Shown: piece by piece, positions 25,601-39,172 of the stretch
How the letters are laid out: every line of letters starts with the position of its first letter
How positions within the stretch are numbered: the first letter of the stretch is position 1
Assembly (NCBI GenBank): GCA_030591445.1
Contig: JAUVBB010000001.1
Location: forward strand, 1 to 59,511
Direction: 5' to 3'
DNA from: Deltaproteobacteria bacterium
Lineage (GTDB): Bacteria; Myxococcota; B64-G9
Length of the DNA stretch: 59,511 bases
Translations under genes and position numbers: made by a program
The notes under the pieces: model-generated
The model's database searches: none
Seen by the model: only the letters and a program-made list of their open reading frames with translations
What the model was told of the DNA's origin: nothing

Positions 25601-25789
25601 CGCGACAGCGGCACCAATTTCTTCCTGGAAAGACTCCCCCAAGGAAACTACCCCTTCAAATACCGCCTACGCGCCGCCGTCGCCGGCACCTTCAAAGCCG
25701 CCCCCGCCACCGTCCAACCCATGTACGCCCCCGAATTTACGGCCTACTCCTGCGGGCGCACCATCACCATCCAACCCAGTCCTAAGTAG
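19646..25789 (+). CDS. Alpha-2-macroglobulin family protein with an intact thioester (2047 aa)
   Basis: YPYECTEQTLNRF carries the CTEQ thioester at 24170-24181. Repeated MG-type beta domains are present. FSETAFFKP follows a low-complexity acidic bait-like segment. The N-terminus has the signal or lipobox-like segment LISSGWSFGC. AAGGGGAG lies 6 nt upstream of the ATG. Confidence 0.92.
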   Translation: MKCMPALWCKWLIIILISSGWSFGCPGNQGLLEPGGGSGAVAVDKQPERVEPLTVVAWSGKFDQGWKEYDRLVKEQKFEQAAKSVEDMLEKAKSTGKSEEWVRGLIRFVQLRTALHGYEKSVRFFREQPWPEDLLSSAVLHLFYAQSLVQYARSYSWEIRKRERVDSKGVVDLKAWTLDQIYEEAQRAYQKVWQHRQQLGKHAVTSLSEYVQANNYPRQIRPTLRDAVSYLWVEMLADTSGWRPEHSNEVYRLDLGKMLSQPAPVSLTDPAVHPLLKICAVLDDLEQWHRARGEAEAHFETRLTRLRNLHAHFKREPDRARLRADLRERLPSMRKLAWWSMGMNVLAEFVRAEQTADNLIRARKIALDGQQAYPESIGGMRCHHLVKSIEMPDFRPMAMASDGPGKRSIGIQHKNLGRLYFRAYRLDLKKQIESARDYNLYPQHDQLQKLIDKSTPSKRWQADLAATPDYKMHRSYVVPPMDRPGFYVVVFSATKDFAPKQNKLQALFMVVGDLVLLSRQLGDRVEVEILSGQTGRPISGAKVHLYRFDYKRGHRSVASRVTGKDGRVVLKKKGSHSYFLFAQKRKQVAIDPQNIYLNARPKPGETYASLIYTDRSIYRPQQSVHFKVVAYRGNYDRADFKTAPATPLTVSLLDANHQEVAKKKLKTNRFGSASGSFVIPAGRLLGRWQLRANWSGYAHIRVEEYKRPTFEAKLLDPESPLRLNRQAQLKGEARYYFGLPVTNGKVRWRVTRAPVFPWWWSYYWWRGGAVSNQAQTIDAGTATLADDGTFSIAFTPKADERGDGQTKGFSYRYAVSAEVTDEGGETRTASRSFRLGFVAVEARMNMETHFMLEDRPGVLTVTRSNLDGIADPGRGSYRIVALQSPARALLPADQPLLEMPGAKKSPAYVTPGDLLRSRWNPGYRPEAVLRGWADGAQKSKGGLIHNDEGKAEIKLPGLPAGAYRLHYKTRDAFGAQYQMSQEFMVAGTQSRLSLPAYLQVEQSSVKVGGTARILALSGLSDQPLVLDIYRDGVRRERRRLESGRDATLIEIPISEDHRGGFSVVLTALRDHQVMKFTRNLYVPWDNKELKVSFSSFRDLLRPGGKEKWTVKVSGPAGRDTPARAAEVLAYMYDRSLDTFASHNPPSPLALFPHRARAVWARTSLGGARSGWLRSHGLSTLPGYPHLGSDILRFFSGYGIGGVGKRGQLFYAVATGSTVAAAQSARSTSLDARVSDGLLANEELASAEPRDAEDRESEGGEDVNGAAAAPAPVQMRTDFSETAFFKPHLLTGQDGSVSFEFTVPDSVTSWNVWVHAITNDLESGSLKKEAKTVKDLMVRPYLPRFLREGDQAQIKVAINNASARKLTGSLDFDIIDPATERSLLADFGLTEKETRDRPFTVAAKGGTTLSFAIETPAKVGPIAFKVIARSGDFSDGELRPLPVLPGRIHLAQSRFVTLKDKTRRELHFADMARNDDDSMIHEQMVVTIDAQLFYSVLNALPYLVNYPYECTEQTLNRFVSTGILASMYKDFPAIERMAKKFASRKQQYETWNNNDPNRKMALEETPWLQMAQGGPQRSHPLINVLDPRITRAQRDASLAKLKKIQTANGSFPWFAGGPPSPYMTLYLLYGFSKSIEFGVEVPKNMTQRAWRYLHQHYIDQVVDWMMKNNCCWEFITFLNYTLSNYPDASWSGGVFSKLERKQMLDYSFSHWKEHSPYLKGYLSLTLSRADRKKDALLVWESVMDSAQTKEDQGTFWAPEDRAWLWYNDTIETHAFAIRTVMELMPKSEHLDGLVLWIFLNKKLSHWKSTRATAEVIYSLAHYLKKTAQLGLREEIRVTAGDTQKNFVFEPDEYTGKKNQIVIPGEEIDAQKHATVVVEKDTKGYAFASATWHFSTDKLPAEARGDFIQVTRKFFKRVKTGREVVLQPLKEGARIEVGDELEVQLQLVAKHPMEYIHLRDPRPAGFEPTSIVSRHHWNLGIGWYQEIRDSGTNFFLERLPQGNYPFKYRLRAAVAGTFKAAPATVQPMYAPEFTAYSCGRTITIQPSPK

Positions 25790-25805
25790 CTCGGCAAAGC
25801 CGAGC
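25789..25805 (+). terminator. GC-rich hairpin overlapping the A2M stop codon
   Basis: gctcggc-aaa-gccgagc forms a 7-bp stem with a 3-nt loop. No U-tract follows. Confidence 0.3.
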
Positions 25806-25820
25806 GAAAGAAGAGCTTGC

Positions 25821-25850
25821 TTGACAGCCCTTAGAAAAGTGACCTATTTT
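25821..25850 (+). promoter_or_regulatory. Sigma70-like promoter close to the cyclase start codon
   Basis: TTGACA (25821-25826), 18 nt of spacer, then TATTTT (25845-25850). The ATG is at 25859, and no Shine-Dalgarno lies between them. Confidence 0.4.
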
Positions 25851-25858
25851 CATAGTAC

Positions 25859-28240
25859 ATGGACAAGTTAGCTCGCAAAGACAAAGACGTCGTTGCCAGG
25901 ATCATCGATCATCGGATCAAGCAGGACGATCTGCGTCAGATGCTTACGGCGCTTAGTGAAGATGATCGCGACGAATTCGTGGTGAAGGTGGCCGACACCT
26001 TGCGCAAGACCACGGCCTTGCTTGAGGTCAGCAAGCAAGTGTCGGACACGCTTTCTTTGGACGTGCTGCTGCCGCGCACGGTGACCTTGATCTCGGAGTT
26101 TCTCGACGCGGATCGTTGTACTTTGTTTCTCAACGATCAAGCCAGCAGTGAGCTATTCTCGCGGGTGGCCGAGGGCGATCTGACCCATGAGATCCGCTTT
26201 CCTAATCACCTGGGCATCGCCGGCTCGGTGTTCAAGAGCGGCGAATCAGCCATCATCGAAGATGCCTACGCCGATGATCGTTTCAACCAAGAGGTCGACC
26301 GCAAGACCGGCTATCGCACCCGCAATATCCTGTGCGCGCCTATCAAAACCGGACGGGGCGAAATCATCGGCGTGGCCCAGGTGCTAAACAAGAACCAGGG
26401 CGACTTTAGTCCCGACGATCTGGATCTGCTCCAGGTGCTCACCTCGCAGGCGGCCTCGGCCTTCGTCAACGCTCAGCTGCACGAAGACATCGAGCGCGCC
26501 CGGCGCGACGAATCAGAGCTACTGGAAATCACCACTGCTATCTCGCAAGAGTTGCAACTCGAGCCCTTGCTGCAAAAGATCATGGAGACGGTCACCGCCA
26601 ATCTCAACGCCGATCGCTCTACTTTGTTTATGTATGACAAAAAGACCGACGAGCTTTGGTCTCACGTGGCCCAGGGCATGGAGACCAAGGAGATCCGCTT
26701 TCCCGCCCACCTGGGCATTGCCGGCTCGGTGTTCAAGAGCGGCGAGACTATCAACATCCCTGATGCCTATGCCGATGATCGTTTCAACCAGGAGGTCGAC
26801 AAGAAAACCGGCTACCACACTCACACCATCCTGTGCATGCCCGTGATCAACAAGCAGAGCAAAACCATCGGGGTGGTCCAGGTGCTCAACAAGCAGGGCG
26901 GGCCTTTCCGCACCAAAGACGAGTTGCGCCTGCGGGCCTTTACCTCCCAGGCCACCATTGCCATCGAGAACGCCCAGTTGTTTGAAGAAGTGGTCTCGAT
27001 GAAGAACTACAACGAGAGCATCCTCGAGAGTATGTCCAACGGCGTGATTACCATCACCGCCGACAACGAAATCGCCACCGCCAACCGCGCGGCTTTGTCC
27101 CTCTTTCGTTGCGTTGACCAGCCCGAAAAGCTGCTCGGTAAAAGCACCGAGAGTTTCTTCTTCGGCCAAAACGCCTGGATCGCCGTCACCCTGGACTCGG
27201 TGCGCTCAAGCGGCAAAACATCCGTGGCCCTGGACGTCGAATTGTGGCTCAACCAAGAAGAACCCAGCGCGGCTTCGGTTAATCTCTCGGTACTGCCTTT
27301 GCTCGACAGCAAAGAACAACACATCGGCTGCCTGCTCATGCTCGAAGATATCACCAAGGAAAAACGTTTGCGCAGCACCATGGCCCGTTACATGACCAAA
27401 GAGGTAGCCGACAAGCTGCTCGAAGATGGCGAGGCCGTCCTCGGCGGCCAGACCCAAAAAGCCACCATCTTGTTCACCGACATCCGCAGCTTTACCTCCA
27501 TCTCTGAAGTGCTAGGCGCCACCGAGACCGTTCGCTTGCTCAACGACTACTTCAGCATCATGGTCGACATCATCCTCGACCACAACGGCATCCTGGACAA
27601 ATACATCGGCGACGCCATGATGGCGGTTTTTGGCGCCCCCTTCGCCACCTCCGAAGACGCCGACAATGCCTTACAAGGCGCCATCGAGATGGTGGTGGCC
27701 TTGCGTCGGTTCAACCAAACCCGTGTTTCGGCCGGCGAAGATCCGGTACACATGGGCGTGGGCATCAACACCGACGAAGTACTCTCGGGCAACATCGGCT
27801 CCATCAAACGCATGGACTACACCGTCATCGGCGACGGCGTGAACCTGGCCTCGCGCTTAGAAAGCGCCAACAAACTTTATGGCACCAAGATCCTCATCAG
27901 CGAAAACACCGCCCAGGCGCTGCGCAAAGACTACCGCCTGCGCGAAGTCGACAAAATCCGGGTCAAGGGCAAAAACGAACCAGTTTCAGTCTTCGCCGTC
28001 ATGGACTGCCACGACGAACAAAGTTTCCCCCGCATGAACGAAGTCCTGGCCCGCTACCAGCACGGTCTCGAGCACTACCACAACCGTAACTGGTCCATGG
28101 CCCAAACCCTTTTCGCCGAAGCCCTGTCCCTCAACCCCAACGACAGCGTCTCCGGCCTGTATCTCAAACGCTGCCAACACTTCCACACCACCCCACCCGC
28201 GGACGACTGGGACGGCATCTGGACCATGACCAGTAAGTAA
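25859..28240 (+). CDS. GAF-GAF-PAS class III adenylate/guanylate cyclase
   Basis: Two GAF units each contain RFPxHLGIAGSVFKSGE...DAYADDRFNQEVDxKTGY. A PAS-like linker follows. Cyclase motifs are ILFTDIRSFTSISE, KYIGDAMMAVFGAP and VIGDGVNLASRLES. Confidence 0.93.
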   Translation: MDKLARKDKDVVARIIDHRIKQDDLRQMLTALSEDDRDEFVVKVADTLRKTTALLEVSKQVSDTLSLDVLLPRTVTLISEFLDADRCTLFLNDQASSELFSRVAEGDLTHEIRFPNHLGIAGSVFKSGESAIIEDAYADDRFNQEVDRKTGYRTRNILCAPIKTGRGEIIGVAQVLNKNQGDFSPDDLDLLQVLTSQAASAFVNAQLHEDIERARRDESELLEITTAISQELQLEPLLQKIMETVTANLNADRSTLFMYDKKTDELWSHVAQGMETKEIRFPAHLGIAGSVFKSGETINIPDAYADDRFNQEVDKKTGYHTHTILCMPVINKQSKTIGVVQVLNKQGGPFRTKDELRLRAFTSQATIAIENAQLFEEVVSMKNYNESILESMSNGVITITADNEIATANRAALSLFRCVDQPEKLLGKSTESFFFGQNAWIAVTLDSVRSSGKTSVALDVELWLNQEEPSAASVNLSVLPLLDSKEQHIGCLLMLEDITKEKRLRSTMARYMTKEVADKLLEDGEAVLGGQTQKATILFTDIRSFTSISEVLGATETVRLLNDYFSIMVDIILDHNGILDKYIGDAMMAVFGAPFATSEDADNALQGAIEMVVALRRFNQTRVSAGEDPVHMGVGINTDEVLSGNIGSIKRMDYTVIGDGVNLASRLESANKLYGTKILISENTAQALRKDYRLREVDKIRVKGKNEPVSVFAVMDCHDEQSFPRMNEVLARYQHGLEHYHNRNWSMAQTLFAEALSLNPNDSVSGLYLKRCQHFHTTPPADDWDGIWTMTSK

Positions 28241-28274
28241 GGTTCTTTCGGGGGACGTTAGGGCGTAAGTTGCG

Positions 28275-30419
28275 CTAGGCGTCGGGTGAAACCCTGCCGG
28301 GTCGCGCCTCTAGCACCATGACGCTGCGGGATGATACTCGCACCGCCGCCGGACCGGCCGGGGGTTGCTCGGAGCGGTTGCGGACATCCGCCGGCGCCGA
28401 TTGGGCGGTATCGATCGCCACCGCCCAGCGGTAGCCTTCAAGCACGGGTAGCTCGGCAGCGACTGGGTCTTCGGACAGGTTCAGAACGATATGCAGGTCT
28501 TCTTCACCCTTGGCCACCGCTCCCAGGGTGAAGGCCAGCACTCGCGCCTGTGGATCTTGCCAGGCCGGCGCGTTTAGCTGGGCGCCATGCCAACGTATCT
28601 CGGGCAAGCGCTGGGCAGAGCCGCGTTCCCCGGTCAAGAAGCGCCGGTGCCGCAGACAGGGATGACGCTTGCGAAAGGCAATCAGGCCCCGGACAAAACG
28701 CAGCATGTCCGCGTTGGGCGCAAGCAAGTCCCAGTCCATCCAGCCAATCTCGTTGTCCTGGCAATAGGCGTTGTTGTTGCCCCGCTGGGTGCGCAACACC
28801 TCGTCGCCGTACAACAACATGGGCACGCCCTGGCTCAGCAGCAGGATGGCCAACAGGTTCTTGGCCTGGCGCCGCCGCAGCTCAATGAGCCTAGAATCGT
28901 CGCTCTCGCCCTCCTGCCCGTAGTTGTGGCCATAGTTCTCGTTGGTTCCGTCGCGGTCATCCTCCCCATTGGCCAGGTTGTGCTTGCGATCGTAGCTGAC
29001 CAGATCGCGGAGAGTGAAGCCGTCGTGGCAGGTCACAAAGTTAATGCTGTTGGAGGGCAGCCGCCCGGCGCTCTGGTAAAGATCGCTGTTGCCGCTCAGG
29101 CGGGTAGCCAACTCGCCAATGAGCCCCCCTTCCCCGCGGACGAAGCGACGAATCACGTCGCGGTAGCGACCATTCCACTCGCGCCAGCGATAGCCGGGAA
29201 ATCCACCCACCTGATAGAGACCGGCGGCGTCCCAGGCCTCGGCGATGATCTTGGTCTGCGCCAGCTGCTCTGACAACTCGATGTGCCAAAGGAAAGACGG
29301 GTGGGTCATGGGCTGGCCGTCCTCGCCCCGCGCCAGCGCGGAAGCAAGATCAAAGCGAAATCCGTCCACGTGGAACTCCCGCACCCAATACTCCAGGCTG
29401 TCGAGCAGACAAGCGTTGACCAGCGGGTGGTTGCAGTTGACGGTGTTGCCGCAACCGGTGAAGTCCCGGTATTGGCGCCGGTCGCTGGGATCGAGGTGGT
29501 AGAAGGTATCGTTGCCAAAGCCCTTGTAATTGATCCACGGGCCGGTCGCACCGCCCTCGGCGGTGTGGTTAAACACCACGTCCAGGATAACGCCGATCCC
29601 GGCCCGATGCAGCGCGCGAACCAGGTCCTTGAACTCCCGCCGGTGGGTTCCTTGCTCGGGGGTAACGCAATAGCCCGGGTGGGGGCTGAAAAAACTATGG
29701 GTGCTGTAGCCCCAGAAGTTGCTAAGCCCAAGCCGGCTGGAACTTGCCGGCAGGTCTTGCACATCGAAGGCCATGATCGGCATCAGTTCGACGTCGGTGA
29801 TGCCGAGATCCTTGAGATAGGGAATCTTCTCGATCATCCCGGCAAAGGTGCCCGGATGCTGTACGCCGGCTGATGGATGGCGCGTAAACGCCCCCAAGTG
29901 CAACTCGTAGAGAATGGTTTCCTCGAAAGGGTGGCCAAGGGGCTGGTCGCCCTCCCAGTCGTAGTCATCATTAACCACCATAGCCCGCATGGACGGGCTG
30001 CGCTCTTCGGGCCGGCTGGCCCGCGCCCGGTCCCAGTGAATATCCGAGACCGCCCGCGCCCAGGGATCTAGCAGTTCTTTGTTGGCGTTGTGGCGAAAAC
30101 CGGTTTCGCGGGTATTGGTCGGCCCATCAACCCGGTAAGTGTACCAAACCCCGCTGGGCAAACCCTCGACGTAGACATGCCAGGTGAAGTAAGTCTGATG
30201 GTGAGTCGGATCCAGCCGGATTACCTGGAAGGGTTTTGCAGCTTCGGCCGATTGGTACAGGTTGAGCTCGACCCAAGTAGCATGCCGACAGAAAATCGAA
30301 AAGTTCACCCCAGAGGGATCCACGGTGGCCCCTTGCGGAAAGCGGCGTCCATGTCTGATCGAGTAGGGCTTTTTCACGTTCATCGGCTGTTCATACCACT
30401 CGACAGCGCGGCTGTACAA
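28275..30419 (-). CDS. glgX: Glycogen debranching enzyme GlgX (GH13)
   Basis: GH13 conserved regions are present: GVILDVVFNHTAEG, HVDGFRFDLASAL, IIAEAWD and FVTCHDGFTL. The start may be the internal MNVKKPYSIRHG at 30383. Confidence 0.93.
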   Translation of the reverse strand: MYSRAVEWYEQPMNVKKPYSIRHGRRFPQGATVDPSGVNFSIFCRHATWVELNLYQSAEAAKPFQVIRLDPTHHQTYFTWHVYVEGLPSGVWYTYRVDGPTNTRETGFRHNANKELLDPWARAVSDIHWDRARASRPEERSPSMRAMVVNDDYDWEGDQPLGHPFEETILYELHLGAFTRHPSAGVQHPGTFAGMIEKIPYLKDLGITDVELMPIMAFDVQDLPASSSRLGLSNFWGYSTHSFFSPHPGYCVTPEQGTHRREFKDLVRALHRAGIGVILDVVFNHTAEGGATGPWINYKGFGNDTFYHLDPSDRRQYRDFTGCGNTVNCNHPLVNACLLDSLEYWVREFHVDGFRFDLASALARGEDGQPMTHPSFLWHIELSEQLAQTKIIAEAWDAAGLYQVGGFPGYRWREWNGRYRDVIRRFVRGEGGLIGELATRLSGNSDLYQSAGRLPSNSINFVTCHDGFTLRDLVSYDRKHNLANGEDDRDGTNENYGHNYGQEGESDDSRLIELRRRQAKNLLAILLLSQGVPMLLYGDEVLRTQRGNNNAYCQDNEIGWMDWDLLAPNADMLRFVRGLIAFRKRHPCLRHRRFLTGERGSAQRLPEIRWHGAQLNAPAWQDPQARVLAFTLGAVAKGEEDLHIVLNLSEDPVAAELPVLEGYRWAVAIDTAQSAPADVRNRSEQPPAGPAAVRVSSRSVMVLEARPGRVSPDA

Positions 30420-30440
30420 GCCCGGATACCCACTTGCTTG

Positions 30441-31349
30441 CTACCACAGAGCGGTCAAGGTAATGCCAAATCCGTCTTGGTAGAAGGATGGGGTGGCCAT
30501 GACTTGGGCCAGACCAAGGAAAGGCTCCGAATCATCTGGGTCGCGGGTGTGTAAGTAGGGTACGGCAAAGCCAATGGCACTGCCAACGGCGGCGCCGACC
30601 AGAACGTCGGACCAAAAGTGTTTGCCGGCTTCCACTCGCAGGAACGCGGTGGAAGCAGCGAGCGCGTGGCTGCCCAGCCAAACCGGAACCACGGCCCAGC
30701 TGTCGGGATGGCGTTGGCTAAAGAGATAGCTATAGGCGGTGGCCATGGTAAACGACAAGGAAGTGTGTCCGGAGAAAAAGGACAAAGAGTCTTCGGTGGC
30801 CGTAGAATCAAAACCGGTCTGGTACATATAAGGTCGAGGCCGGCGAACCATGAACTTGGTCAAGGTACACACGGTGAGGTTGACCGCCACGGCCTCGGTT
30901 AGAATCAGGGCGTCCTGGGCAAAACCTTCGAGGCCTCGATCCTTGCCCACCAACCAGTAGTCAAGCGAGCTTGCCAAAAAGGGTAACACAACGCTGGCAG
31001 CCAGGGTGACATCCGAGGCCATGGCCGCGCTTGGTGAGTGATTGCCCAAAACCGATCGGTCCATGCCATTGAGTTCGGCTGGGTTCAAATTGCGCAAGCT
31101 CAGGTCTCTGCCCAAGTCTCCGCCCAGGAGCTTCGGCGCAATGCCGATGAAAATACCGCTCAAGCTAAGTGACAGATCGGAAGGCATATGCAGCTGGAAC
31201 AGACGGTCCTCATCGACAGGCGCTTGGTCATCGCTCGCCTCCGCGCCTGCGCTGGAACTTTCCAGGCGCTCAACTTCTGCTGGGGATTTGGCTTGGACCT
31301 GCGTTCCAATCAACGACAGCGAGACAACTAGGGTGACTACGGTTTTCAT
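30441..31349 (-). CDS. PAP2-family (lipid) phosphatase, membrane-bound
   Basis: The three PAP2 motifs are present: KFMVRRPRP (Kx6RP), SFFSGHTS (SGH) and RVEAGKHFWSD (Rx5Hx3D). A signal or TM N-terminus is present. AAGGGG is the RBS. Confidence 0.88.
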   Translation of the reverse strand: MKTVVTLVVSLSLIGTQVQAKSPAEVERLESSSAGAEASDDQAPVDEDRLFQLHMPSDLSLSLSGIFIGIAPKLLGGDLGRDLSLRNLNPAELNGMDRSVLGNHSPSAAMASDVTLAASVVLPFLASSLDYWLVGKDRGLEGFAQDALILTEAVAVNLTVCTLTKFMVRRPRPYMYQTGFDSTATEDSLSFFSGHTSLSFTMATAYSYLFSQRHPDSWAVVPVWLGSHALAASTAFLRVEAGKHFWSDVLVGAAVGSAIGFAVPYLHTRDPDDSEPFLGLAQVMATPSFYQDGFGITLTALW

Positions 31350-31443
31350 TCTACCCCTTGGGTATCAACTCGGTCCCCCGAGAATCTAATGATACCTTAA
31401 AGGTAATTTTTGCATGAATCGGCTCTTTTTGACAAGCCCTATT

Positions 31444-33138
31444 TCAGTTCAGGCGGTCCAGACCGACAATCTGCTGACCACGGGGTAAACCATGATCGAA
31501 GAGGTGAACTTCGATGGCGGTGGGCGGGACCGAGGATCGGCGGCGAACGTCAATGCGCAGGACACCGTAGCCCGGTGAGCGATCGCCGAGCGGCAGCAAG
31601 ACGCAGGAACGATCGGGGTGATCGGGGTCGGGTTGAAATTGTAGCCAGCCCAGGCGCTGGTCCAATTGGGGGCCGGCCATCATTTTGACTTGGTACAGGA
31701 CCTGAGCGGGATTGGCACCGGCGTGGCGAATAGCCAGGTCTTCGAAGCACAGCGATTGGGCGGAGTTTCCGGCTTGGCGTCTAAGCAGGCGAAAACGATC
31801 TAGCGGTACATGCTTTTGCAGGTATTCTTCGGTGATAAGATCGCGTCTTTTGCGCAGGGCCTCGAATAAGTATTGCTCATGGCGCGCATTGTGCAAGCGC
31901 CCGGTTTTGACCACGGCATAGAGCTGCGCATCGCTAAAACGGGCAATGATGCGCACCATCCACAAGGCATCGCGGAAAGTCATGCGCGCGTGGGCCGGGT
32001 GCGGGTAGACCGATCGCCACTTCGAGGGCGTGAAGTTTTGCCAGTCGAAATATCCGAAGATCTCGGCCTCGTCGTTAATGCGGGCGTGGGTCCAGGGCCG
32101 AGGCATGAGCCCAAGGCTGAGCATGTCGACCACAATGTGCTCGATATCGAAATAGTAGGAGTGACCTACGCGCCGATCGAGCCGATCGTCCCAGGGACTG
32201 GCCAAGGCGTGGCCGAAATCAATCATGTAATGGCGAACAAAGCGACGGCCATCTTCTTCGACAAACATATCCAAGGAGTTCTGCTCGCGGGTATCGAAAT
32301 TATTGAACCAGGCGGCCAACAAGCGCACGGCTCTCAACTCACGCCGGTTCTCATGGGCAATGATGTCGTTGGGATCGTCTAAGCGCGTGCCTTCGAGTTG
32401 GTGGGGTCCTAAGGGAATGCCGGGCAGAAAACGGCTAGCCGAGGCACGTAGCTCGCCGGTTTTAAGCCGAAAGGCATGGGCCAGGGCCCGCTCGACGGCG
32501 GCCGGCGCTAAGGCAATCTTTTCGCCAAACTCATTGACGGTCACGGCGGCGGGATCAAGCTGCAAAATGTTTCGCCGGAAATAAACAATCTCGTTACAGG
32601 GTGCATGGTAGCCGGCGGCAAAATAGAGCTTCGAGCCAATGACGTCCGCAACCGTCTCCCGCTGCGGCCGATGAGAACCGTCGAACTTGAGCAGGTAAGT
32701 GAAACCGTCGGGAGCCTTGATGAAGAAGCCCGGGTTGATGCCTTCGGTTTTGGCGCGGGTAATCAGCCAGGGCCCGCGTTGCGGATCCAGTGACGGTGCC
32801 TGGCAACTGCCCCGGGCCACTTCCGCGGGCGTCATGTCCACACGGCCGATGCGGTTTACAAACCAGGAAGAATCAGGCACTTCGTCCAGGCTGTTGACAT
32901 TGATTGATTCCAGCGGATCGGAAAAAGCGAGAAAATCAGACCAGGGCCGCAAAACTGTTTGGTCCAAAGCATCGCCAACCAGGGTGGAAGATCGCGCTTG
33001 GGGTTGGGTCGACACATGCTCCCTATCCGGATCCTGCCACAAGGTCTCGGTGGCCGGAAAACCGCGGGGCGCATGGCTGCAAGCGGCCCCCAGCATAGCC
33101 ATGGCAATCCAAATCCATTTATTGCGAAGGTCCGCCAT
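31444..33138 (-). CDS. Exported protein with a protein-kinase-like fold and PI3K/PI4K-like IDFGH signature; function unknown
   Basis: The start MADLRNKWIWIAMAMLGAAC is a signal peptide with a possible lipobox. It sits 1 nt after the upstream stop codon. Kinase-fold candidates are YLLKF (beta3 Lys), RETVADVIGSKLY (alphaC Glu), NNFDTREQNSL (D..N catalytic loop) and HYMIDFGHALAS (DFG). The conserved N-terminal block is NSLDEVPDSSWFVNRIG. Confidence 0.6.
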   Translation of the reverse strand: MADLRNKWIWIAMAMLGAACSHAPRGFPATETLWQDPDREHVSTQPQARSSTLVGDALDQTVLRPWSDFLAFSDPLESINVNSLDEVPDSSWFVNRIGRVDMTPAEVARGSCQAPSLDPQRGPWLITRAKTEGINPGFFIKAPDGFTYLLKFDGSHRPQRETVADVIGSKLYFAAGYHAPCNEIVYFRRNILQLDPAAVTVNEFGEKIALAPAAVERALAHAFRLKTGELRASASRFLPGIPLGPHQLEGTRLDDPNDIIAHENRRELRAVRLLAAWFNNFDTREQNSLDMFVEEDGRRFVRHYMIDFGHALASPWDDRLDRRVGHSYYFDIEHIVVDMLSLGLMPRPWTHARINDEAEIFGYFDWQNFTPSKWRSVYPHPAHARMTFRDALWMVRIIARFSDAQLYAVVKTGRLHNARHEQYLFEALRKRRDLITEEYLQKHVPLDRFRLLRRQAGNSAQSLCFEDLAIRHAGANPAQVLYQVKMMAGPQLDQRLGWLQFQPDPDHPDRSCVLLPLGDRSPGYGVLRIDVRRRSSVPPTAIEVHLFDHGLPRGQQIVGLDRLN

Positions 33139-33139
33139 A

Positions 33140-34501
33140 TCAGTACCCCTGGTTAATGCCCAGGACGAAATGAACCCGGTCGACTTGTAACGAACCTTCG
33201 TCCAGCCGGCTGCTGCCAAAGGCCAGCATCATGTCAAATGAGACATCGCGAGAATTGTTCGAGCGTAAACCGAAACCCCAACTCAAACGGGTACGATCTA
33301 CCGCAAAGCCCTCAAAATCGGGTCCGAAAACACCACCGGCGCTGACAAACATGTCGGCATCCAGAAAGGCCCAGACCGGAAAACGATAGTCGGCGGTCAC
33401 CACCGCCCCGCTTTGTCCGCGCAAGCGTCCGGCCAAGAAACCACGCAGGTACTCCAAACCACCAAAACTGGTGAGCTCAGTAAAGGGCACCGGTCGCGCA
33501 CCGATTTTACTCACTTGCTCGGCATGCAAGCGCAAACCCAGCACGTGGTTGACGCCGCTCCAATCCCAGAAGCCGGCTAGCTCTCCGCCATAGCGCACAA
33601 AGGCAAGAGACGAATCAGCAGGATCCACGGCCAGGGCGCTTTGCAGTTCCAGCCGCAGCCCAGTCCCCGGGGACCACTGGCGCTGATCACTGCGGCTGTC
33701 GAGCGCCAGTTTCGCCGAAGCCTCGGCCAGTTGGTAGGTTGCGAAACCGGGAACCAGAACCGGGTCGGTCAAGTCGTAGACTTCCTCGATGGATCGACCC
33801 TGTCCGCTGCCAAAGCGCGTTTGCCGGAAGCCTAGCCAAAACGAGACCGTGTTGAGCCCGGATATTTTACTCTCCAAACCGGCGTCGACCGACAAGAGCG
33901 TTTCACGATAACGAGTCAACAGACCCGATCGACCGTCGGGGCCCAGGCCAACTCCGGCAAACAAATGGTCGGGCCGGGTGGTGTACTCAGCCCTGAGAAC
34001 CAGACTGCCGGTGTTGCCGGCAAATACTCCCAACCGATTCTCGGCGGCCAGCCGGATCCACTGGTCCGACCAGAATCCAGCGCGTACGATCAGCTTGTGA
34101 TGGCTAAGCAGCAAGTTCTCCAAATAAGCATAAAAACCCACGTGGGGATTGAGGCCGAACTCGACAAAGGCGGTAGGAAAGAAACCGGCCTGGCCGTCTA
34201 CCCAAGTAAAGAAGCGTTTGAGCCGGGCAAAAACATGGTGCTCTTCCCCCCAATCGACCACCGCCACTAATGGTCCCCGCAACACGCGTTCCACCAAAAC
34301 ATGGGCCGGATGAAACAGGACGCGCGGCACCCAACGCAGCGCCTCGGCCGCGGTGGGCGGTGCCGGTTCGGCTCGCCCGTAGTCCGGCATCGGTCTTTTT
34401 TCAGTCGCCGAGACTGGACCTAGCCAAAGACAGAGGAACAAAACCGGTATTATCGCTGTCCAGCCTCGGCCTGGAGAACGAAACATGATCTTGCCCATCA
34501 A
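33140..34501 (-). CDS. Omp85/D15-family outer-membrane beta-barrel lacking recognisable POTRA domains
   Basis: The signal peptide is AIIPVLFLCLWLGPVSA. The C-terminal region LEYLRGFLAGRLRGQSGAVVTADYRFPV...DADMFVSAGGVF...FVLGINQGY is typical of the bacterial surface antigen barrel. Its ATG overlaps the upstream stop in an ATGA overlap. Confidence 0.7.
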   Translation of the reverse strand: MMGKIMFRSPGRGWTAIIPVLFLCLWLGPVSATEKRPMPDYGRAEPAPPTAAEALRWVPRVLFHPAHVLVERVLRGPLVAVVDWGEEHHVFARLKRFFTWVDGQAGFFPTAFVEFGLNPHVGFYAYLENLLLSHHKLIVRAGFWSDQWIRLAAENRLGVFAGNTGSLVLRAEYTTRPDHLFAGVGLGPDGRSGLLTRYRETLLSVDAGLESKISGLNTVSFWLGFRQTRFGSGQGRSIEEVYDLTDPVLVPGFATYQLAEASAKLALDSRSDQRQWSPGTGLRLELQSALAVDPADSSLAFVRYGGELAGFWDWSGVNHVLGLRLHAEQVSKIGARPVPFTELTSFGGLEYLRGFLAGRLRGQSGAVVTADYRFPVWAFLDADMFVSAGGVFGPDFEGFAVDRTRLSWGFGLRSNNSRDVSFDMMLAFGSSRLDEGSLQVDRVHFVLGINQGY

Positions 34502-35727
34502 GAAGACTGTTCACAATCGGTACAAACCTGATCTGGCTTAAGTGCCCGTCCAGTTGCCAAACGACCGCTCTGATTGAGATTGTAGATTCGGCCGCGCCAG
34601 CGAAGCTCGCGCTTGAATGAAACCATGGCCAAGACCAAGGGCGCCGACAGCAAAACAGCAAAGGCAACCAGGCGGCCAAAACCATGGAGCCGTCCGCCGC
34701 CGATCATCCGATGCAGGCGATGATACGAGAGGCTAACCGCCATGGGCGCCAAGCCGCTTAAGGCGGCGGCCAACCACCAAGACTGTGACCAGGCAATGGC
34801 CGATGCGGCCAAGCCCAACCAAAACACCGCGCCACGCACATAACCATGTATCTTGAACTGCCGGCCAGGCAAACCACTGCGCGAAAAGGTCAACCAGCGG
34901 GCATAGGTGCGCAGAAACTCACCCAGGCCGACGCCATGTTGAATGATGGGCACAGACTGGGGCACCACCCGGTTGTCAAAACCGGCGGCCTGCACCCGGG
35001 CACCGATGTACATGTCATCCACCAGTTGTCCTTCGACACTCTGCAAACCGCCAATGGCTGCAAGCGCCTCGCGCCGAAAGGCCATGAACTGTCCCATGAT
35101 AAAGGGCAGTTTTCCACCACCACTCGCGGCCGCCGCGGCCGCCGCCGGCCCGTAGAGGCCGTTGATCATCATGGCATAGCCGGCATCGCCCAGGGTCTCG
35201 GCGTCGCTGGTCACGACCACCGGGGCAAAGGCAGAGCCCGCCTTCTCATCGGACATTAACGTCTCGACTAGTTGGGCCAGAGATTGGCGACCGGTGCGAA
35301 TGTCCGAATCGGCAAAAACAACAATCTCGCCCTTGGCTTTGGCCAAACCCGCGATCATGGCATGGAGCTTGCCGGTGCGACCCGCCAGCGGTTCACCCGA
35401 AAAGAGAATCGAAGCGCTGCGGTCTATGGATGCTGCCGCCGCGGCGATGGCCTTTTGCGCCAAGGCCAAGGCCGGCTCGGTCTGATTATCAAAAACGAAG
35501 ATCGTCTCCACCGAAGCCGGATAGTCGTTATCCAGAGAAGCCCTCAGGTTCTCCTGGGCACCAACGTCCAGTCCTTTGATGGGACGGATAACCGATACCG
35601 ATGGGTAACGGACGAGGGGGCTGCTGTTTTTCTGCGCGCGCAAAGCGCGGCTGAGTCGAATATGAGATCGAGCGGTTTGCCACAACAAAACCGCCGCCAA
35701 CAGAATCAACAAGATTTCGAAGTACAT
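34498..35727 (-). CDS. GT2-superfamily glycosyltransferase, Glyco_transf_21-like (ceramide glucosyltransferase / HpnI-like)
   Basis: The N-terminal TM segment is MYFEILLILLAAVLLW. VSVIRPIKGLDVGAQENLRASLDNDYP...FVFD, GKLHAMIAGL...VVFADSDIR and MGQFMAFRREAL are present, together with C-terminal TM helices. AGGAG lies 7 nt upstream of ATG 35727. The track ORF starts at 35802. Confidence 0.8.
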   Translation of the reverse strand: MYFEILLILLAAVLLWQTARSHIRLSRALRAQKNSSPLVRYPSVSVIRPIKGLDVGAQENLRASLDNDYPASVETIFVFDNQTEPALALAQKAIAAAAASIDRSASILFSGEPLAGRTGKLHAMIAGLAKAKGEIVVFADSDIRTGRQSLAQLVETLMSDEKAGSAFAPVVVTSDAETLGDAGYAMMINGLYGPAAAAAAASGGGKLPFIMGQFMAFRREALAAIGGLQSVEGQLVDDMYIGARVQAAGFDNRVVPQSVPIIQHGVGLGEFLRTYARWLTFSRSGLPGRQFKIHGYVRGAVFWLGLAASAIAWSQSWWLAAALSGLAPMAVSLSYHRLHRMIGGGRLHGFGRLVAFAVLLSAPLVLAMVSFKRELRWRGRIYNLNQSGRLATGRALKPDQVCTDCEQSS

Positions 35728-35740
35728 GGTTCGGCTCCTT

Positions 35741-36373
35741 TCACCGGGCGGCAACCAACTTCCGGATGGAGGCAAACAGATCGGGAACTTCCCTACCCGC
35801 ATTGGATCGGGCCAGCCACTTAGGCAACCAGCCGGCTAGATCCAATTGGGCTTGAAAACGCAGGCGCGTGGCCTTACCGCTGGCCAGCGGCACAAGTTGC
35901 CAACTGCCATGATGAAAGGGAACACGTACGATGCCGTCTCTTTCTTCTAAACCAAGACTGTTGGCCGTCCGGTACACAATCCACTGATTTTCGCCATCTG
36001 CGCCCCAGGTCACATAGAGAGTAAAATCCCGATCACTGATAATGGGCAGATTCAGATGCTGGTAGACCACAATCCAACCGGGTCCGTTCTTTAGCACTAC
36101 GCTCTCGCTCACCCGGGCAATGTTGCCCTTTTGCGAAGCGTAATCGAGCAGCACTGCCCGCACCAAATCGGGCGGCGCCGCAATTGTGCCTTCGGCGGCC
36201 ACCCGGATATTATCCGAGGTCTTGTGCTTATACACTGTAACCCCGTATTTATAGGCAATCTTTTCAAAACCCACGCCGTTCAAATTCTCGTCCAATGGGG
36301 TGAGCTCGGCGCCAGAAACTGGCAGGACAATCATAAAGACCGTCCATATTATAACCTTCGTTCCTATTCTCAT
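35741..36373 (-). CDS. Exported START/SRPBCC lipid-binding domain protein
   Basis: MRIGTKVIIWTVFMIVLPVSGAE is a signal peptide. START-like blocks are PIISDRDFTLYVTW, VRVPFHHGSWQLVPL..KATRLRFQAQLDLAGWLPKWL. AAGGGGG lies 5 nt upstream of ATG 36373. Confidence 0.75.
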   Translation of the reverse strand: MRIGTKVIIWTVFMIVLPVSGAELTPLDENLNGVGFEKIAYKYGVTVYKHKTSDNIRVAAEGTIAAPPDLVRAVLLDYASQKGNIARVSESVVLKNGPGWIVVYQHLNLPIISDRDFTLYVTWGADGENQWIVYRTANSLGLEERDGIVRVPFHHGSWQLVPLASGKATRLRFQAQLDLAGWLPKWLARSNAGREVPDLFASIRKLVAAR

Positions 36374-36404
36374 GGCGGCCCCCTTTCTCTTGATTTTTGC
36401 TACC

Positions 36405-36420
36405 AGCAATGAGCGTGCCA
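36405..36420 (-). promoter_or_regulatory. Sigma54 (RpoN) -24/-12 promoter of the START operon
   Basis: The minus strand reads TGGCACG-CTCA-TTGCT, an exact match to the consensus TGGCACG-N4-TTGCW. The -12 GC lies ~33 nt upstream of ATG 36373, and the RBS falls in between. Confidence 0.75.
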
Positions 36421-36499
36421 TCAGCATATTTTTCGACATAATCATTGATAACGGCGCATTACAGAAAGTATCCCACTTCAGCACGAACGCCCAGGCTCA

Positions 36500-36543
36500 G
36501 TGACACACCTTACGAGACACTTTATCGAGACAGTACTGAGACA
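36500..36543 (-). promoter_or_regulatory. Four phased direct repeats; candidate enhancer-binding-protein or response-regulator site
   Basis: The plus strand has GTGACA at 36500 and GAGACA at 36514, 36527 and 36538, with spacings of 14, 13 and 11 bp. On the minus strand these read TGTCTC/TGTCAC. They lie 80-125 bp upstream of the sigma54 element. Confidence 0.4.
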
Positions 36544-36547
36544 GGAG

Positions 36548-38962
36548 TCAATCGATAAGACGAATACTGCTGATGCGGGAGGAGACGGCCAAGGATACCG
36601 TTCCCTGCTCTACTTCTAACTGCTCCAGATCGCGTTCGCGGGCATCGCAGCGGTAAGCTTTCTGCACCGAACGCGATGGGCAGCGAAGGCTTACTTGGGT
36701 GCCCTTGGGGGCCGAGCTTGAAAGCCGAACAATGATCCCGGGGCCGCGGTGGGCCGGCTTGACCGCGGTGACCCGCACATCGGCCCGATTGCTTTGAACC
36801 AGGGAAGCAGTCGCCCCTTCTAAATCCGGGGCCGAAGAATCAAGCCAGGCTGGAGACATGACCTGCCGCGCTTGACCCGCAAAATCGCCCGGCGCGCCAT
36901 CCCCGAGCGCGGCAAAACGAACCGCATAGTCAAAGTCATGCTCTTGGTCATCGTGGCCCGCGGCGGGATGCGCTGGAACCGGCAAAAAACCAAAGGCCCG
37001 CTCCCAGGGGGCATAGCGCAACACCATCCACTCCAGCGCTCCGTGGGCCCGTGCTGATACGCTGGCCGGCCGGCCCAACAAAAGCAGGCACTCGCGATCC
37101 CGGCGACGATCTTGCAATTGCACAAAGCTCTGGGCACACCAGAAAGTCGGTCGCGTTAGTTTGTGGGCCGGTCGGGTGATTAGGGCGCCGGGCACATCCA
37201 TGTGCAGCTTGCCCACCGATAACTTGATCGGAAAGCTGCAGGTCACAGTTTGCCGACGCGACGCGGCCCCGCGGGTTCGCATCCGGATGACCGGTGAATC
37301 GGCACGAAACCAGAGCCAACGGGTGGTGGGCTGAAAATCAAGCCGACAATCCACCCGTAGCTCAAGCACATTGCCGCGCTCGGTGGCCTGGATCTCGGCC
37401 TGATTGAGACTGCATCGGTCCCGCTCTCGAAAATGACCACCGCAGTACTCGTGACCCAAACGCCACAAACCGCCGGTGTCGCCGTAGGCAATCATGTCGT
37501 TGGCCGGACCACGCAGATACTCGGTGCTGCCGGAAGCATCCTGAAGACTCACGATGCAGCCACCAAGCCGTTCGTCGAGCACCAGCTGATAGTGAGACGT
37601 GGTCACCAGCCACTTTCCGTCTTGCCGGCGCAGGCTGGGTGGCGCTGCCGGTGCCGGTTTCTTTTCGACGGCAGCGACCGCTTGGCACTGCGAAAGCACA
37701 CCATCGACCAGTGCCAATCCCTCTGCCAACCAGGGTTCTTGCTCTTCGATCACCGTTCGGTCAGGGGAAGTGCCGGTGATAAAATCATGGTGATTGCTCA
37801 ACACGGCCAGATTCCAGGCCGACTCCAGATCCTGCAGGCGCGGGTCCGCCGACTGCTGCCGACCATCAGCCAGCACCAGTTTTTCCGCCAATTGCAGCTT
37901 GTCGGTCAACTCCCGGCAGCGTTGCTTGAGCCCCGGTCGGCTGGCATAGTGGCCCATCCAAAAAGGATTGGGATCGAGGTCCACCGTGGGCAAACACTCA
38001 CGGTGAAAATCAACCAGTCTCAGGTAATCGTCGGCGGCGGCATTGACCACCCAGACGCCGGTATCGGGATAGCGCTTGCGGTTATAGCGATCCAGCAATT
38101 CGATCAATTGCGGCATGGGTCCGTTGAAATCACAACCGATGGGGCAGGACATATAAGGTGTTTTGGCCAAGGGGGCCAGTTGCTTGATCAGGGCGGCAAT
38201 CTGCGCCGCCACATGACGCTCCGTACGCCAGGGAACCCCGAACAACTTGTCCATCCAACGAATCACCCCGCGAGAACCAAGCATGTCTCCCTGAAAATAA
38301 GTAAAAGCGTTCCAATGGCACAAGACTTCGGCCCCGTCGGGCGCCCGCCAGACAAAGTCTAAGGTCTGTAGCTCTTTCAACAGCAACTGCGCACTCGAAC
38401 CTCGCTGGGGAAAACTTTTTTCCGTCCGGTAATCACATCCCACGAAGTGCATGCCATCGATTCGGGTGATGACTGTCTTGTCGAATCCCAGTGCTGATAG
38501 CATTGCCGGTACGCCCGGCGATGAACCGAAATCGTCGGGCAGATAGGCAAGATCCGGTTCGGCCTCGATTCCATTTCGCCGCAGCCATTCCTGGCCCAAC
38601 AGATAATCGCGTAGGATGGACTCGGGGTCGGGCAAATTGGTATCCGGGGTGGTCATGCCGGTGCCGATCAAACGCAGTTGTCCGCTATGGATCAGTTCTC
38701 GCAGTTTCTCTCGCTGGGAGCTTTCTTGCTCGAAAAACTGGACCAAAAAGAAAAGGCTCTCGATCGAAAACACGCGGCGTGGATTTTTTTCTAGCTCGGA
38801 AATCACCCGCAGCATGATGGGCTGGATTTTTCGCCGGTAGTACTCATCCGAGGTATACAGCCAATTGGGATCCCAGTGACTGCTCTCCCCGAAAACGAGC
38901 ACCCGCTCGGCCTCAACAGGAATACCCAGGCGCTGTCGTGTTTCCGACTCTTGCATCTCCAT
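36548..38962 (-). CDS. GH38-like alpha-mannosidase family protein, cytoplasmic
   Basis: The N-terminus VFGESSHWDPNWLYT retains the HxD metal ligands of the GH38 HxHxDxxW block. YLPDDFGSSPGVPAMLSALGFD matches the DxFG block. No signal peptide is present. Length is 804 aa. Confidence 0.65.
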   Translation of the reverse strand: MEMQESETRQRLGIPVEAERVLVFGESSHWDPNWLYTSDEYYRRKIQPIMLRVISELEKNPRRVFSIESLFFLVQFFEQESSQREKLRELIHSGQLRLIGTGMTTPDTNLPDPESILRDYLLGQEWLRRNGIEAEPDLAYLPDDFGSSPGVPAMLSALGFDKTVITRIDGMHFVGCDYRTEKSFPQRGSSAQLLLKELQTLDFVWRAPDGAEVLCHWNAFTYFQGDMLGSRGVIRWMDKLFGVPWRTERHVAAQIAALIKQLAPLAKTPYMSCPIGCDFNGPMPQLIELLDRYNRKRYPDTGVWVVNAAADDYLRLVDFHRECLPTVDLDPNPFWMGHYASRPGLKQRCRELTDKLQLAEKLVLADGRQQSADPRLQDLESAWNLAVLSNHHDFITGTSPDRTVIEEQEPWLAEGLALVDGVLSQCQAVAAVEKKPAPAAPPSLRRQDGKWLVTTSHYQLVLDERLGGCIVSLQDASGSTEYLRGPANDMIAYGDTGGLWRLGHEYCGGHFRERDRCSLNQAEIQATERGNVLELRVDCRLDFQPTTRWLWFRADSPVIRMRTRGAASRRQTVTCSFPIKLSVGKLHMDVPGALITRPAHKLTRPTFWCAQSFVQLQDRRRDRECLLLLGRPASVSARAHGALEWMVLRYAPWERAFGFLPVPAHPAAGHDDQEHDFDYAVRFAALGDGAPGDFAGQARQVMSPAWLDSSAPDLEGATASLVQSNRADVRVTAVKPAHRGPGIIVRLSSSAPKGTQVSLRCPSRSVQKAYRCDARERDLEQLEVEQGTVSLAVSSRISSIRLID

Positions 38963-39114: not shown

Positions 39115-39172
39115 CGCCGAAGCAATAAACGAGCTGTATAAGCCCAGCTCCGATAGTAACAAGGAGGTCAGT

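Follow-up and report, generated by a model that had tools for sequence, protein, structure and literature searches.

The gene at positions 31444 to 33138 on the minus strand encodes a 564-residue protein that has a lipoprotein signal peptide and a predicted kinase fold with conserved catalytic landmarks. It belongs to a large uncharacterised myxobacterial family whose genes lie within 400 bp of a POTRA-less Omp85 outer-membrane barrel gene in 63 of 83 related loci and beside a homologue of TLC ATP/ADP transporters in 41 of 83. This linkage suggests ATP-dependent chemistry outside the cytoplasm, although ATP supply to the periplasm is plausible but unproven. The stretch of DNA analysed, referred to here as the window, comprises 59,511 nucleotides of Deltaproteobacteria bacterium (Myxococcota; contig JAUVBB010000001.1 of assembly GCA_030591445.1). 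A preliminary description of the window had reported an exported protein with ordered kinase-fold motifs, and this observation is confirmed. Its interpretation, which favoured a resemblance to phosphoinositide 3/4-kinases and considered a pseudokinase, a lipid-binding module or an enzyme using another phosphate donor, is only partly supported.

Gene, export signal and conserved residues

The open reading frame runs from an ATG at 33138 to the stop at 31444. The ATG lies 1 nt after the stop of the upstream Omp85 gene and has an AGGGG sequence 7-11 nt upstream. A longer frame from a TTG at 33219 is possible but unlikely, as it would bury the signal peptide and overlap the upstream gene by 80 nt, and homologues align from the ATG. 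A total of 897 homologues with E<=1e-3 were found among 8000 candidates scored in one search, and an exhaustive search found 2445 clusters at 50% identity, which is far beyond chance. Homologues reach 63% identity and all are annotated as hypothetical. No Pfam or NCBIfam family scored above threshold, and the exact protein was not on record in the contig index searched. Expression evidence is limited to a 175-nt contig in a run labelled metatranscriptomic, and a promoter and terminator scan of positions 28000-39500 returned no more sites than shuffled sequence.

The signal peptide (33079..33138, minus strand; residues 1-20, MADLRNKWIWIAMAMLGAAC) fits by eye the lipobox pattern {DERK}(6)-[LIVMFWSTAG](2)-[LIVMFYSTAGCQ]-[AGS]-C, with MLGAAC at residues 15-20 following a charged N-region and a hydrophobic core. 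C20, the predicted lipidated +1 cysteine, is kept in 28 of 30 close and 53 of 60 diverse homologues, and 174 of 240 full-length relatives match a loose lipobox pattern. The +2 residue is Ala, Gly or Ser across the family and never Lys, whereas a +2 Lys marks inner-membrane lipoproteins in M. xanthus (PMC3222651). Two cysteine pairs, C112/C181 and C464/C512, are always gained or lost together; C464 and C512 are both present in 47 sequences and both absent in 13. This perfect covariation supports an extracytoplasmic location. The claim of export in the preliminary description, whose localisation had been set as a point to be checked, is thus supported from sequence.

The signal peptide is followed by a conserved N-terminal extension (32785..33078, minus strand; residues 21-118) containing the blocks RRFP..W.D.D and NVNxLDEVPxSSWFxNRIG. 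Within the block NSLDEVPDSSWFVNRIG, which had been proposed to mark a conserved uncharacterised family, N82, E86, V87, P88, S90, W92, N95 and R96 are each at least 90% conserved, and the existence of such a family is supported. Model confidence is low to moderate in this region (pLDDT 43-85), and this pattern fits a partner-binding segment, which is an inference.

All of the kinase motifs in the preliminary description are present in the translation. The N-lobe strands beta1-beta3 (32674..32784, minus strand) carry a glycine-rich loop (G133, P136, G137), of which G133 is kept in 56 of 60 diverse homologues, and the putative ATP-binding Lys K151 (YLLKFD). K151 lies at the end of a modelled strand (147-152) and is kept in 30 of 30 close and 57 of 60 diverse homologues. 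The catalytic loop NNFDTREQN (D282, R284, N287), two strands and the predicted metal-binding HYMIDFG (H303, D307) occupy 32212..32304 on the minus strand. D282 is kept in 58 of 60, N287 in 55, H303 in 59, D307 in 58, F308 in 51 and G309 in 47, and the order of helix (266-278), loop, two strands and DFG matches the kinase core. K151, D282, N287 and D307 are therefore each conserved in 92-97% of the 60 homologues, in sequences down to about 30% identity. The window protein departs from the family consensus next to two motifs, as N280 is His in 49 of 60 and H310 is Asp in 29 of 60.

One assignment in the preliminary description needs correction. The Glu proposed for helix alphaC (E161 in RETVAD) is not conserved, being Ala in 26 of 30 close and 28 of 60 diverse homologues. 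The conserved acid on that helix (160-175) is D165, which is Asp or Glu in 49 of 60; it is a candidate partner of K151 from sequence and modelled secondary structure alone. A further family-specific block, DDPNDxxxHExRRELR (32335..32382, minus strand; residues 253-268), is conserved to the extent that D255, D258, H262, R265, R266 and R269 are invariant in 60 of 60 homologues. This block may be a site for an anionic substrate, which is inferred.

Predicted fold and relation to known kinases

AlphaFold models were confident for the full-length protein (pLDDT 85.5) and for the atypical protein-kinase-like domain alone (31804..32784, minus strand; residues ~119-445; pLDDT 93.2, pTM 0.92). All 50 best Foldseek matches of the domain model in the PDB are kinases, at probabilities of 0.77-1.0, which supports the bilobal kinase fold of the preliminary description. 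TM-scores were moderate (0.21-0.55, with 0.35-0.55 given for known kinases). The domain is followed by a C-terminal beta-sandwich (31447..31803, minus strand; residues 446-564) of eight modelled strands, which contains the C464/C512 pair and gave Foldseek hits to Asf1 and Ig-like sandwiches. In contrast to the structural comparison, sequence searches against the PDB with the single protein and with profiles of 30 and 60 homologues found no kinase, and returned only spurious armadillo-repeat matches to residues 387-416. No sequence profile reached a curated threshold.

The nearest structures are the secretory-pathway kinases Fam20C, Fam20A and Fam20B (PDB 4kqa, 5wrs, 5yh0; E 1e-5 to 1e-4, probability 1.0), with Fam20C at E 1.1e-5 in the domain search. 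Fam20 kinases are atypical kinase folds that work outside the cytosol and are disulfide-stabilised, as is proposed for the present protein. Fam20C relies on ATP imported into the ER/Golgi lumen, and the TLC genes of related loci would give a parallel arrangement. The similarity is structural only, at 10-13% identity and TM-scores of 0.33-0.44, and no Fam20C Pfam hit was found. The present protein is bacterial and predicted to be lipid-anchored, carries a different N-terminal extension and a C-terminal beta-sandwich, and has an Omp85 partner gene.

The highest TM-score of any hit was to the HipA-like kinase CtkA of H. pylori (PDB 3akk; TMt 0.55, TMq 0.47), which is described as a secreted kinase; HipT (7ab4) belongs to the same group. 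The only sequence-level signal was also to HipA_2/HipA_C, at 13.2 bits against a Pfam cut-off of 27, with hits in 6 and 2 of 60 members, respectively, and a best member E-value of 3.1e-4. The D-x4-N spacing of the catalytic loop is shared. However, an hhalign comparison of the family profile with E. coli HipA gave a probability of 0.4%, the neighbours are Omp85 and PAP2 genes with no HipB-type antitoxin, and the protein carries a lipoprotein signal whereas HipA is a cytoplasmic toxin.

The lipid kinases PI4KII-alpha (E 2e-4) and VPS34 (E 6e-4) come only after Fam20 and CtkA, with TM-scores of 0.2-0.3. They share an IDFG metal-binding motif and are membrane-associated enzymes. No PI3_PI4_kinase Pfam hit was found at E<=1 in any of 60 members. 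The catalytic loop is D-x-R-x-x-N rather than DRHxxN, and the conserved His sits four residues before the DFG Asp and not two as in HIDFG, so that the resemblance to the PI3K motif proposed in the preliminary description is approximate. The protein is therefore an atypical kinase fold by model, but not a PI3K/PI4K, HipA or Fam20 member by sequence.

The three earlier readings of a pseudokinase, a lipid-binding module or an enzyme using another donor are all weakened by the conservation of the catalytic residues and by the TLC homologues encoded beside about half of the related genes, which offer a way round the argument of an ATP-poor periplasm. A pseudokinase scaffold, or a kinase fold doing other chemistry such as AMPylation (as in SelO) or glutamylation (as in SidJ), nonetheless remains as an unlikely alternative, in which the protein would be an accessory or regulatory subunit of the Omp85 barrel. 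The best full-length structural match is Fam20A, a pseudokinase that binds ATP, kinase folds can catalyse other transfers, the alphaC acid is only 82% conserved, and the invariant DDPND..H..RRELR block is not a standard kinase element. The conserved Lys/Asp/Asn/Asp set argues against a dead enzyme but does not separate phosphorylation from AMPylation, whereas the linkage to TLC and PAP2 fits phosphate chemistry.

Conserved gene neighbourhood

Neighbourhoods of related loci were compared with a codon-position GC filter and then with tblastn, since ORF-based clustering selected antisense ORFs in these GC-rich loci. The partner gene in the window (33140..34501, minus strand), which had not been recognised in the preliminary description, encodes a 453-residue Omp85-family barrel (Pfam Omp85, 44 bits against a cut-off of 24) whose L6 motif LRGF aligns to VRGF of BamA. 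No POTRA family was found at E<=0.1 in the whole protein and no domain at E<=1 in the first 191 residues, and only ~100 residues precede the barrel, which separates it from the BamA, TamA and TpsB classes. An Omp85 homologue is present in 68 of 83 related loci, within 400 bp of the kinase gene in 63, and directly upstream on the same strand in 53. Overlap of stop and start is kept in members at 29-33% identity. One natural, complete in-frame fusion of lipoprotein and Omp85 was found, in two assemblies.

POTRA-less ("noNterm") Omp85 paralogues in Leptospira are also flanked by a lipoprotein gene, and one such lipoprotein was suggested to be surface-exposed (PMC11358297). The adjacent Leptospira lipoprotein is a DUF1566 protein and not a kinase fold, and the myxobacterial partner has its own conserved ~80-residue N-terminal motif. 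These comparisons bear on a rival, less likely explanation in which the barrel is a dedicated translocator, in the manner of type V or Slam systems, that moves the lipoprotein to the cell surface, where the kinase domain would act on prey, matrix or neighbouring cells using extracellular ATP. The adjacency of barrel and cargo genes resembles two-partner secretion (type Vb, TpsA/TpsB), the fusion has its passenger at the N-terminus and the barrel at the C-terminus as in PlpD (type Vd) and autotransporters, Fam20C and CtkA are secreted kinases, and myxobacteria export lipoproteins to the matrix (PMC3222651). However, the barrel has no POTRA domain, no TPS-type domain was found in the passenger, and the passenger is a lipoprotein. 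The +7 Ala that marks matrix lipoproteins in M. xanthus is absent, position +7 being G here and R in the consensus (PMC3222651), and a cytoplasmic-membrane ATP/ADP exchanger encoded next to the genes makes more sense for a periplasmic enzyme.

TLC-family genes flank the pair in 41 of 83 loci in several arrangements, including the closest long-contig relative. Four short copies score 49-64 bits against a Pfam cut-off of 21, the two in one related locus (L087) score ~37 bits, and some copies are fused to HEAT repeats. The only PDB relatives of one representative at E<=1 are ADP,ATP carriers (9j3n, 9j3j; E 2e-10 and 4e-6), and conserved motifs such as FWGFAN are visible in the alignment. The relationship to the TLC/NTT ATP:ADP antiporters of Rickettsia, Chlamydia and plastids is distant, the hosts here are apparently free-living Myxococcota, and exchange of ATP for ADP is inferred from homology alone. 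No TLC-like gene exists anywhere in the window, and half of the related loci and three distant ones lack it nearby. ATP supply is therefore not a fixed part of the module, at least not in cis.

The arrangement of TLC, outer-membrane barrel and lipoprotein also resembles uptake systems built from a binding lipoprotein, a barrel and an inner-membrane transporter. Characterised TLC proteins import nucleotides into intracellular bacteria and plastids, and many myxobacteria are predators, so that the three proteins might scavenge ATP or other nucleotides released from lysed prey, with the lipoprotein as nucleotide-binding receptor, the Omp85 barrel as the outer-membrane passage and the TLC protein as importer. 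This reading is the most doubtful of those considered. A pure binding protein would not need D282, N287 and D307 conserved at 92-97%, Omp85 barrels are not known as nutrient channels, and the pair of Omp85 and lipoprotein persists where TLC is missing.

Downstream of the kinase-fold gene, after a 94-nt gap, lies a PAP2 lipid-phosphate phosphatase gene (30441..31349, minus strand; 302 residues; Pfam PAP2, 72.5 bits) with complete KX6RP, SGH and RX5HX3D motifs. A PAP2 homologue lies within 6 kb in 12 of 83 related loci, 9 of them together with TLC, and one also sits between two modules in a further locus (L090). An apparent kinase-PAP2 fusion (P0135) was rejected, because its kinase part stops at residue 381 and is followed by Arg/Pro/Ala-rich sequence typical of a frameshift; it shows only that PAP2 lies downstream on the same strand. 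The upstream GT21/HpnI-like glycosyltransferase gene (34498..35802, minus strand; Pfam Glyco_transf_21, 95.9 bits) overlaps the Omp85 start by 4 nt. It was considered as a partner together with a START-like gene, but neither occurs in any of 85 related loci, and the glycosyltransferase is window-specific context.

Proposed function and implications

The favoured explanation, held at about even confidence, is that the gene encodes an extracytoplasmic lipoprotein, most likely anchored in the outer membrane, with a catalytically competent atypical kinase domain of the Fam20/HipA-CtkA/PI3-4K structural group, followed by an Ig-like beta-sandwich and braced by two disulfides. In this view it works as a unit, probably a physical complex, with the POTRA-less Omp85 barrel, and transfers the gamma-phosphate of a nucleotide to an envelope substrate, which could be an outer-membrane lipid or glycolipid head group or an envelope protein. 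K151 would position ATP, D282 and N287 would form the catalytic loop, and D307 would bind the metal. In many relatives the nucleotide would be delivered to the periplasm by a TLC-type exchanger encoded in the same cluster, and the PAP2 enzyme downstream in the window would remove or pass on the phosphate. The analysis itself establishes the modelled fold, the conservation of the catalytic residues, the export signals and the gene linkage, whereas complex formation, nucleotide binding and phosphate transfer, transport by the TLC homologues and its direction, the identity of the substrate and the role of PAP2 are inferred.

A more far-reaching version of this model is tentative. Many Myxococcota might run an ATP-dependent reaction outside the cytoplasm, in which a TLC-type exchanger in the inner membrane exports ATP to the periplasm and takes ADP back, an outer-membrane-anchored kinase docked on the Omp85 barrel phosphorylates an outer-membrane lipid or protein, and a PAP2 enzyme reverses the modification. 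This would be a bacterial counterpart of the eukaryotic secretory-pathway system in which lumenal ATP import feeds Fam20C, and an exception to the textbook rule that the periplasm has no ATP-driven chemistry. Literature searches for this family, for Omp85 with a kinase-like lipoprotein, for HipA-like periplasmic lipoproteins and for TLC transporters in myxobacteria found no description.

The periplasm and outer membrane are generally treated as free of ATP, and envelope machines such as Lpt, Lol, TonB and Bam are explained by energy coupling from the inner membrane. Here, a family of at least 2445 clusters at 50% identity in at least 578 genomes, covered by no profile database, keeps an intact set of kinase catalytic residues on lipoproteins tied to an Omp85 barrel and often to an ATP/ADP-carrier homologue. 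Together these form a concrete three-gene system in which extracytoplasmic ATP use can be tested directly. It would also give a first functional handle on POTRA-less Omp85 proteins, whose role is unknown. Finally, it could expose a new outer-membrane modification in the class Polyangia, at least one member of which, Sorangium cellulosum So ce56, is reported to lack LPS (title of Keck et al. 2011, as listed in PMC11324152).

The gene and its family

On the minus strand, an ORF runs from 33219 (TTG) or 33138 (ATG) to the stop at 31444. The ATG gives a 564-aa product and is the credible start, as it lies 1 nt after the stop of the upstream gene and has an AGGGG 7-11 nt upstream, homologues align from this Met, and the longer form would bury the signal peptide. 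A preliminary description, made from sequence alone, had reported an exported 564-aa protein with an ordered set of kinase-like motifs; this observation holds, since the gene is real and all of the motifs it listed are present. The organism is uncultured, and the gene sequence is found at low depth in cold-seep and marine-sediment metagenomes. A 175-nt contig with one mismatch, from a run labelled metatranscriptomic, lies inside the gene (32421-32595), which is weak evidence of transcription because DNA carry-over cannot be excluded. The neighbouring genes are typical of Myxococcota.

The product has no Pfam family above threshold. The only hit is HipA_2 at E 0.054 and 13.2 bits against a cut-off of 27, covering residues 126-211. 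No NCBIfam family was matched, and sequence searches of the PDB returned no relative. Despite the absence of a profile, the protein belongs to a very large family. A word-indexed search gave 897 hits with E<=1e-3 among the 8000 candidates scored, the best non-self hit being 63% identical, and all named hits are annotated as 'hypothetical protein' from Myxococcales or Deltaproteobacteria MAGs. An exhaustive search found 2445 clusters at 50% identity, 657 of them at E<=1e-30. The family occurs in at least 578 species-representative genomes, including complete Sorangium genomes, Labilithrix, Sandaracinaceae and Bradymonadales.

Predicted fold, active site and location

The full-length AlphaFold2 model is confident (pLDDT 85.5, pTM 0.86), and a model of residues 100-445 alone is better still (pLDDT 93.2, pTM 0.92). 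Foldseek searches of the PDB with the full-length model place Fam20A, Fam20C and H. pylori CtkA first (E 1e-4 to 7e-4, probability 1.0), followed by VPS34 and HipT, whereas the C-terminal 120 residues match Ig-like sandwiches such as Asf1. With the domain model, all 50 best hits are kinases: Fam20C at E 1.1e-5, then Fam20A and Fam20B; CtkA, which has the best TM-scores (0.47 normalised to the query, 0.55 to the target); PI4KII-alpha at 2e-4 and VPS34 at 6e-4; and Rio2 and MK2. TM-scores are moderate (0.2-0.55), so the protein is a distant relative. At the sequence level, 6 of 60 diverse members hit HipA_2 (best E 3.1e-4) and 2 hit HipA_C, while none hits PI3_PI4_kinase or Fam20C, and hhalign against E. 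coli HipA alone gives nothing. Failure to superpose on a bilobal kinase fold had been named beforehand as grounds for rejecting the kinase assignment, and the models do not fail in this way. The preliminary interpretation is nevertheless only partly supported, as it had favoured a resemblance to phosphoinositide 3/4-kinases, whereas the nearest structural neighbours are Fam20 and HipA-like kinases rather than PI3K/PI4K.

The modelled secondary structure follows the kinase order, i.e. three N-lobe strands (124-130, 137-141, 147-152) with a Gly-rich turn, a helix (160-175), further strands and an insertion, a helix (266-278), the loop NNFDTREQN, two strands, and IDFG. Across 60 homologues at 29-57% identity to the query, K151 is conserved in 57/60, D282 in 58/60, N287 in 55/60, H303 in 59/60 and D307 in 58/60. 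E161, which had been proposed as the alphaC Glu, is Ala in most sequences, while D165, one turn further along, is Asp or Glu in 49/60. Six further residues in a family-specific block, DDPNDxxxHExRRELR (D255, D258, H262, R265, R266, R269), are invariant in all 60, as are D390, W393 and R431. The cluster of invariant arginines suggests an anionic substrate, although this is an inference. The protein differs from the consensus at N280 (usually His) and H310 (usually Asp). A pseudokinase, or a transferase with non-kinase chemistry, is one of the rival readings of such a domain.

The N-terminus is MADLRNKWIWIAMAMLGAAC, with a charged N-region, a hydrophobic core and a lipobox ending at C20. C20 is kept in 53/60 homologues, and lipobox-like motifs are common across the family, with A, G or S at +2 and never Lys. 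In M. xanthus, a +2 Lys marks inner-membrane lipoproteins and a +7 Ala marks matrix lipoproteins (PMC3222651); neither is present here. By that rule, which was established in another myxobacterial class, the protein would go to the outer membrane. Independent support for an oxidising compartment comes from two cysteine pairs that are always present or absent together. C112/C181 are both present in 34 sequences and both absent in 26, C464/C512 are both present in 47 and both absent in 13, and no sequence has only one member of a pair.

Gene context

The upstream gene (33140-34501) encodes an Omp85-family barrel, which Pfam scores at 44 bits against a cut-off of 24. Its LRGF motif aligns with the L6 VRGF motif of BamA, no POTRA domain is detectable, and it has a conserved ~80-residue N-terminal motif of its own. 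Among 83 non-redundant related loci, an Omp85 homologue is found in the fetched flank in 68, within 400 bp of the kinase gene in 63, and directly upstream on the same strand in 53; several loci without Omp85 are contig ends. Three members at only 29-33% identity also have the Omp85 gene upstream with overlapping stop and start. One protein of 1000 aa (P0144), found in two assemblies, is a complete lipoprotein, from lipobox to beta-sandwich, joined in frame to the Omp85 partner, which begins exactly at that partner's conserved post-signal-peptide motif. This fusion argues that the two proteins act together physically. A rival reading of the pairing is type-V-like surface display of the kinase through the barrel.

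A second recurring neighbour is a TLC-family transporter, present within 6 kb in 41 of the 83 loci, 39 of which also have Omp85. Pfam TLC scores are 49-64 bits against a cut-off of 21, together with MFS_1. For one representative searched, the only PDB relatives at E<=1 are 'ADP,ATP carrier protein 1' (E 2.2e-10) and the chloroplast NTT1 (E 3.9e-6), with recognisable shared motifs. The TLC gene usually lies immediately upstream of Omp85 or immediately downstream of the kinase gene, and is sometimes divergent; the closest relative with a long contig (57% identity) has two TLC genes divergent from the pair. Long TLC-like proteins (750-900 aa) fused to HEAT repeats also recur near the module, often alongside a short TLC copy, e.g. 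in the related loci L033 (8579-11266), L071 (8633-11320) and L087 (4582-6852). With a handful of TLC genes per 10-Mb genome, a copy number that is assumed rather than measured, chance is estimated to place fewer than about two within these flanks. However, there is no TLC-like gene anywhere in the 59.5 kb examined here, and TLC is absent from half of the related loci. A nucleotide-scavenging system is a further rival reading of this gene set. cNMP-binding proteins occur in 8 loci and Hanks Ser/Thr kinases in 11, and these may be regulators.

A third recurring neighbour is a PAP2 phosphatase, found within 6 kb in 12 loci, 9 of which also have TLC. In locus L090 (6001-12990; also in L091), the kinase-Omp85 fusion gene, a PAP2 gene, a second Omp85 gene and a second kinase-like gene are arranged in tandem, with a further Omp85 gene and an unknown 514-aa gene downstream and two response-regulator Ser/Thr kinases upstream. 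In the window, the arrangement is GH38, START-like, GT21, Omp85, kinase lipoprotein, PAP2 and GlgX, all on the minus strand, and the PAP2 has intact KX6RP, SGH and RX5HX3D motifs. The same-strand run is flanked by the GlgX/isoamylase-type debranching enzyme (28275-30419) and the GH38 alpha-mannosidase (36548-38962). Within it (34498-36484), a GT21/HpnI-like glycosyltransferase (ceramide-glucosyltransferase family, 95.9 bits), whose stop overlaps the Omp85 start by 4 nt, follows an exported START/SRPBCC lipid-binding-like protein. This arrangement suggests a glycolipid pathway co-transcribed with the module in this organism only. Neither gene occurs in the 85 related loci, and they are not conserved partners.

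Elsewhere in the window, a 2047-aa bacterial alpha-2-macroglobulin (MG2, A2M, bMG10 domains) is followed by a GAF-GAF-PAS adenylate/guanylate cyclase (19646-28240, plus strand). A 634-aa protein with five DUF7151 repeats (272.9 bits) and a Receptor-L-domain-like region (7437-9341, plus strand) lies next to a Ser/Thr kinase with TPR repeats (4373-7291). At 39083-40990, two long ORFs, 599 aa on the minus strand and 605 aa on the plus strand, overlap almost completely; neither has a Pfam hit, so either strand could be the coding one.

Interpretation and relation to known systems

The analysis is considered to show that the gene is real, that its product has a kinase fold (of moderate similarity to known structures, and seen in predicted models), a conserved catalytic set, and export and lipidation signals, and that it is linked conservedly to a POTRA-less Omp85, frequently to TLC and less frequently to PAP2. 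What these parts do is inferred without biochemical evidence. In this view, the lipoprotein and the barrel would form a complex at the outer membrane, the enzyme would use a nucleotide, the TLC protein would supply that nucleotide to the periplasm by analogy with lumenal ATP import for Fam20C, PAP2 would oppose or extend the reaction, and the substrate would be an envelope lipid, glycolipid or protein.

No description of this family or of the three-gene module was found in Pfam, NCBIfam, the PDB or the searchable literature. POTRA-less Omp85 proteins are recognised as a class of unknown function, and in Leptospira they are also flanked by a lipoprotein gene (PMC11358297). The protein is placed within the atypical kinase-like superfamily, but not in the PI3K/PI4K, HipA or Fam20 families, because the sequence criteria for each of these were not fulfilled. 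Although it rests at present on gene linkage only, the system-level reading, a periplasmic supply of ATP feeding an outer-membrane kinase, would be categorically new.
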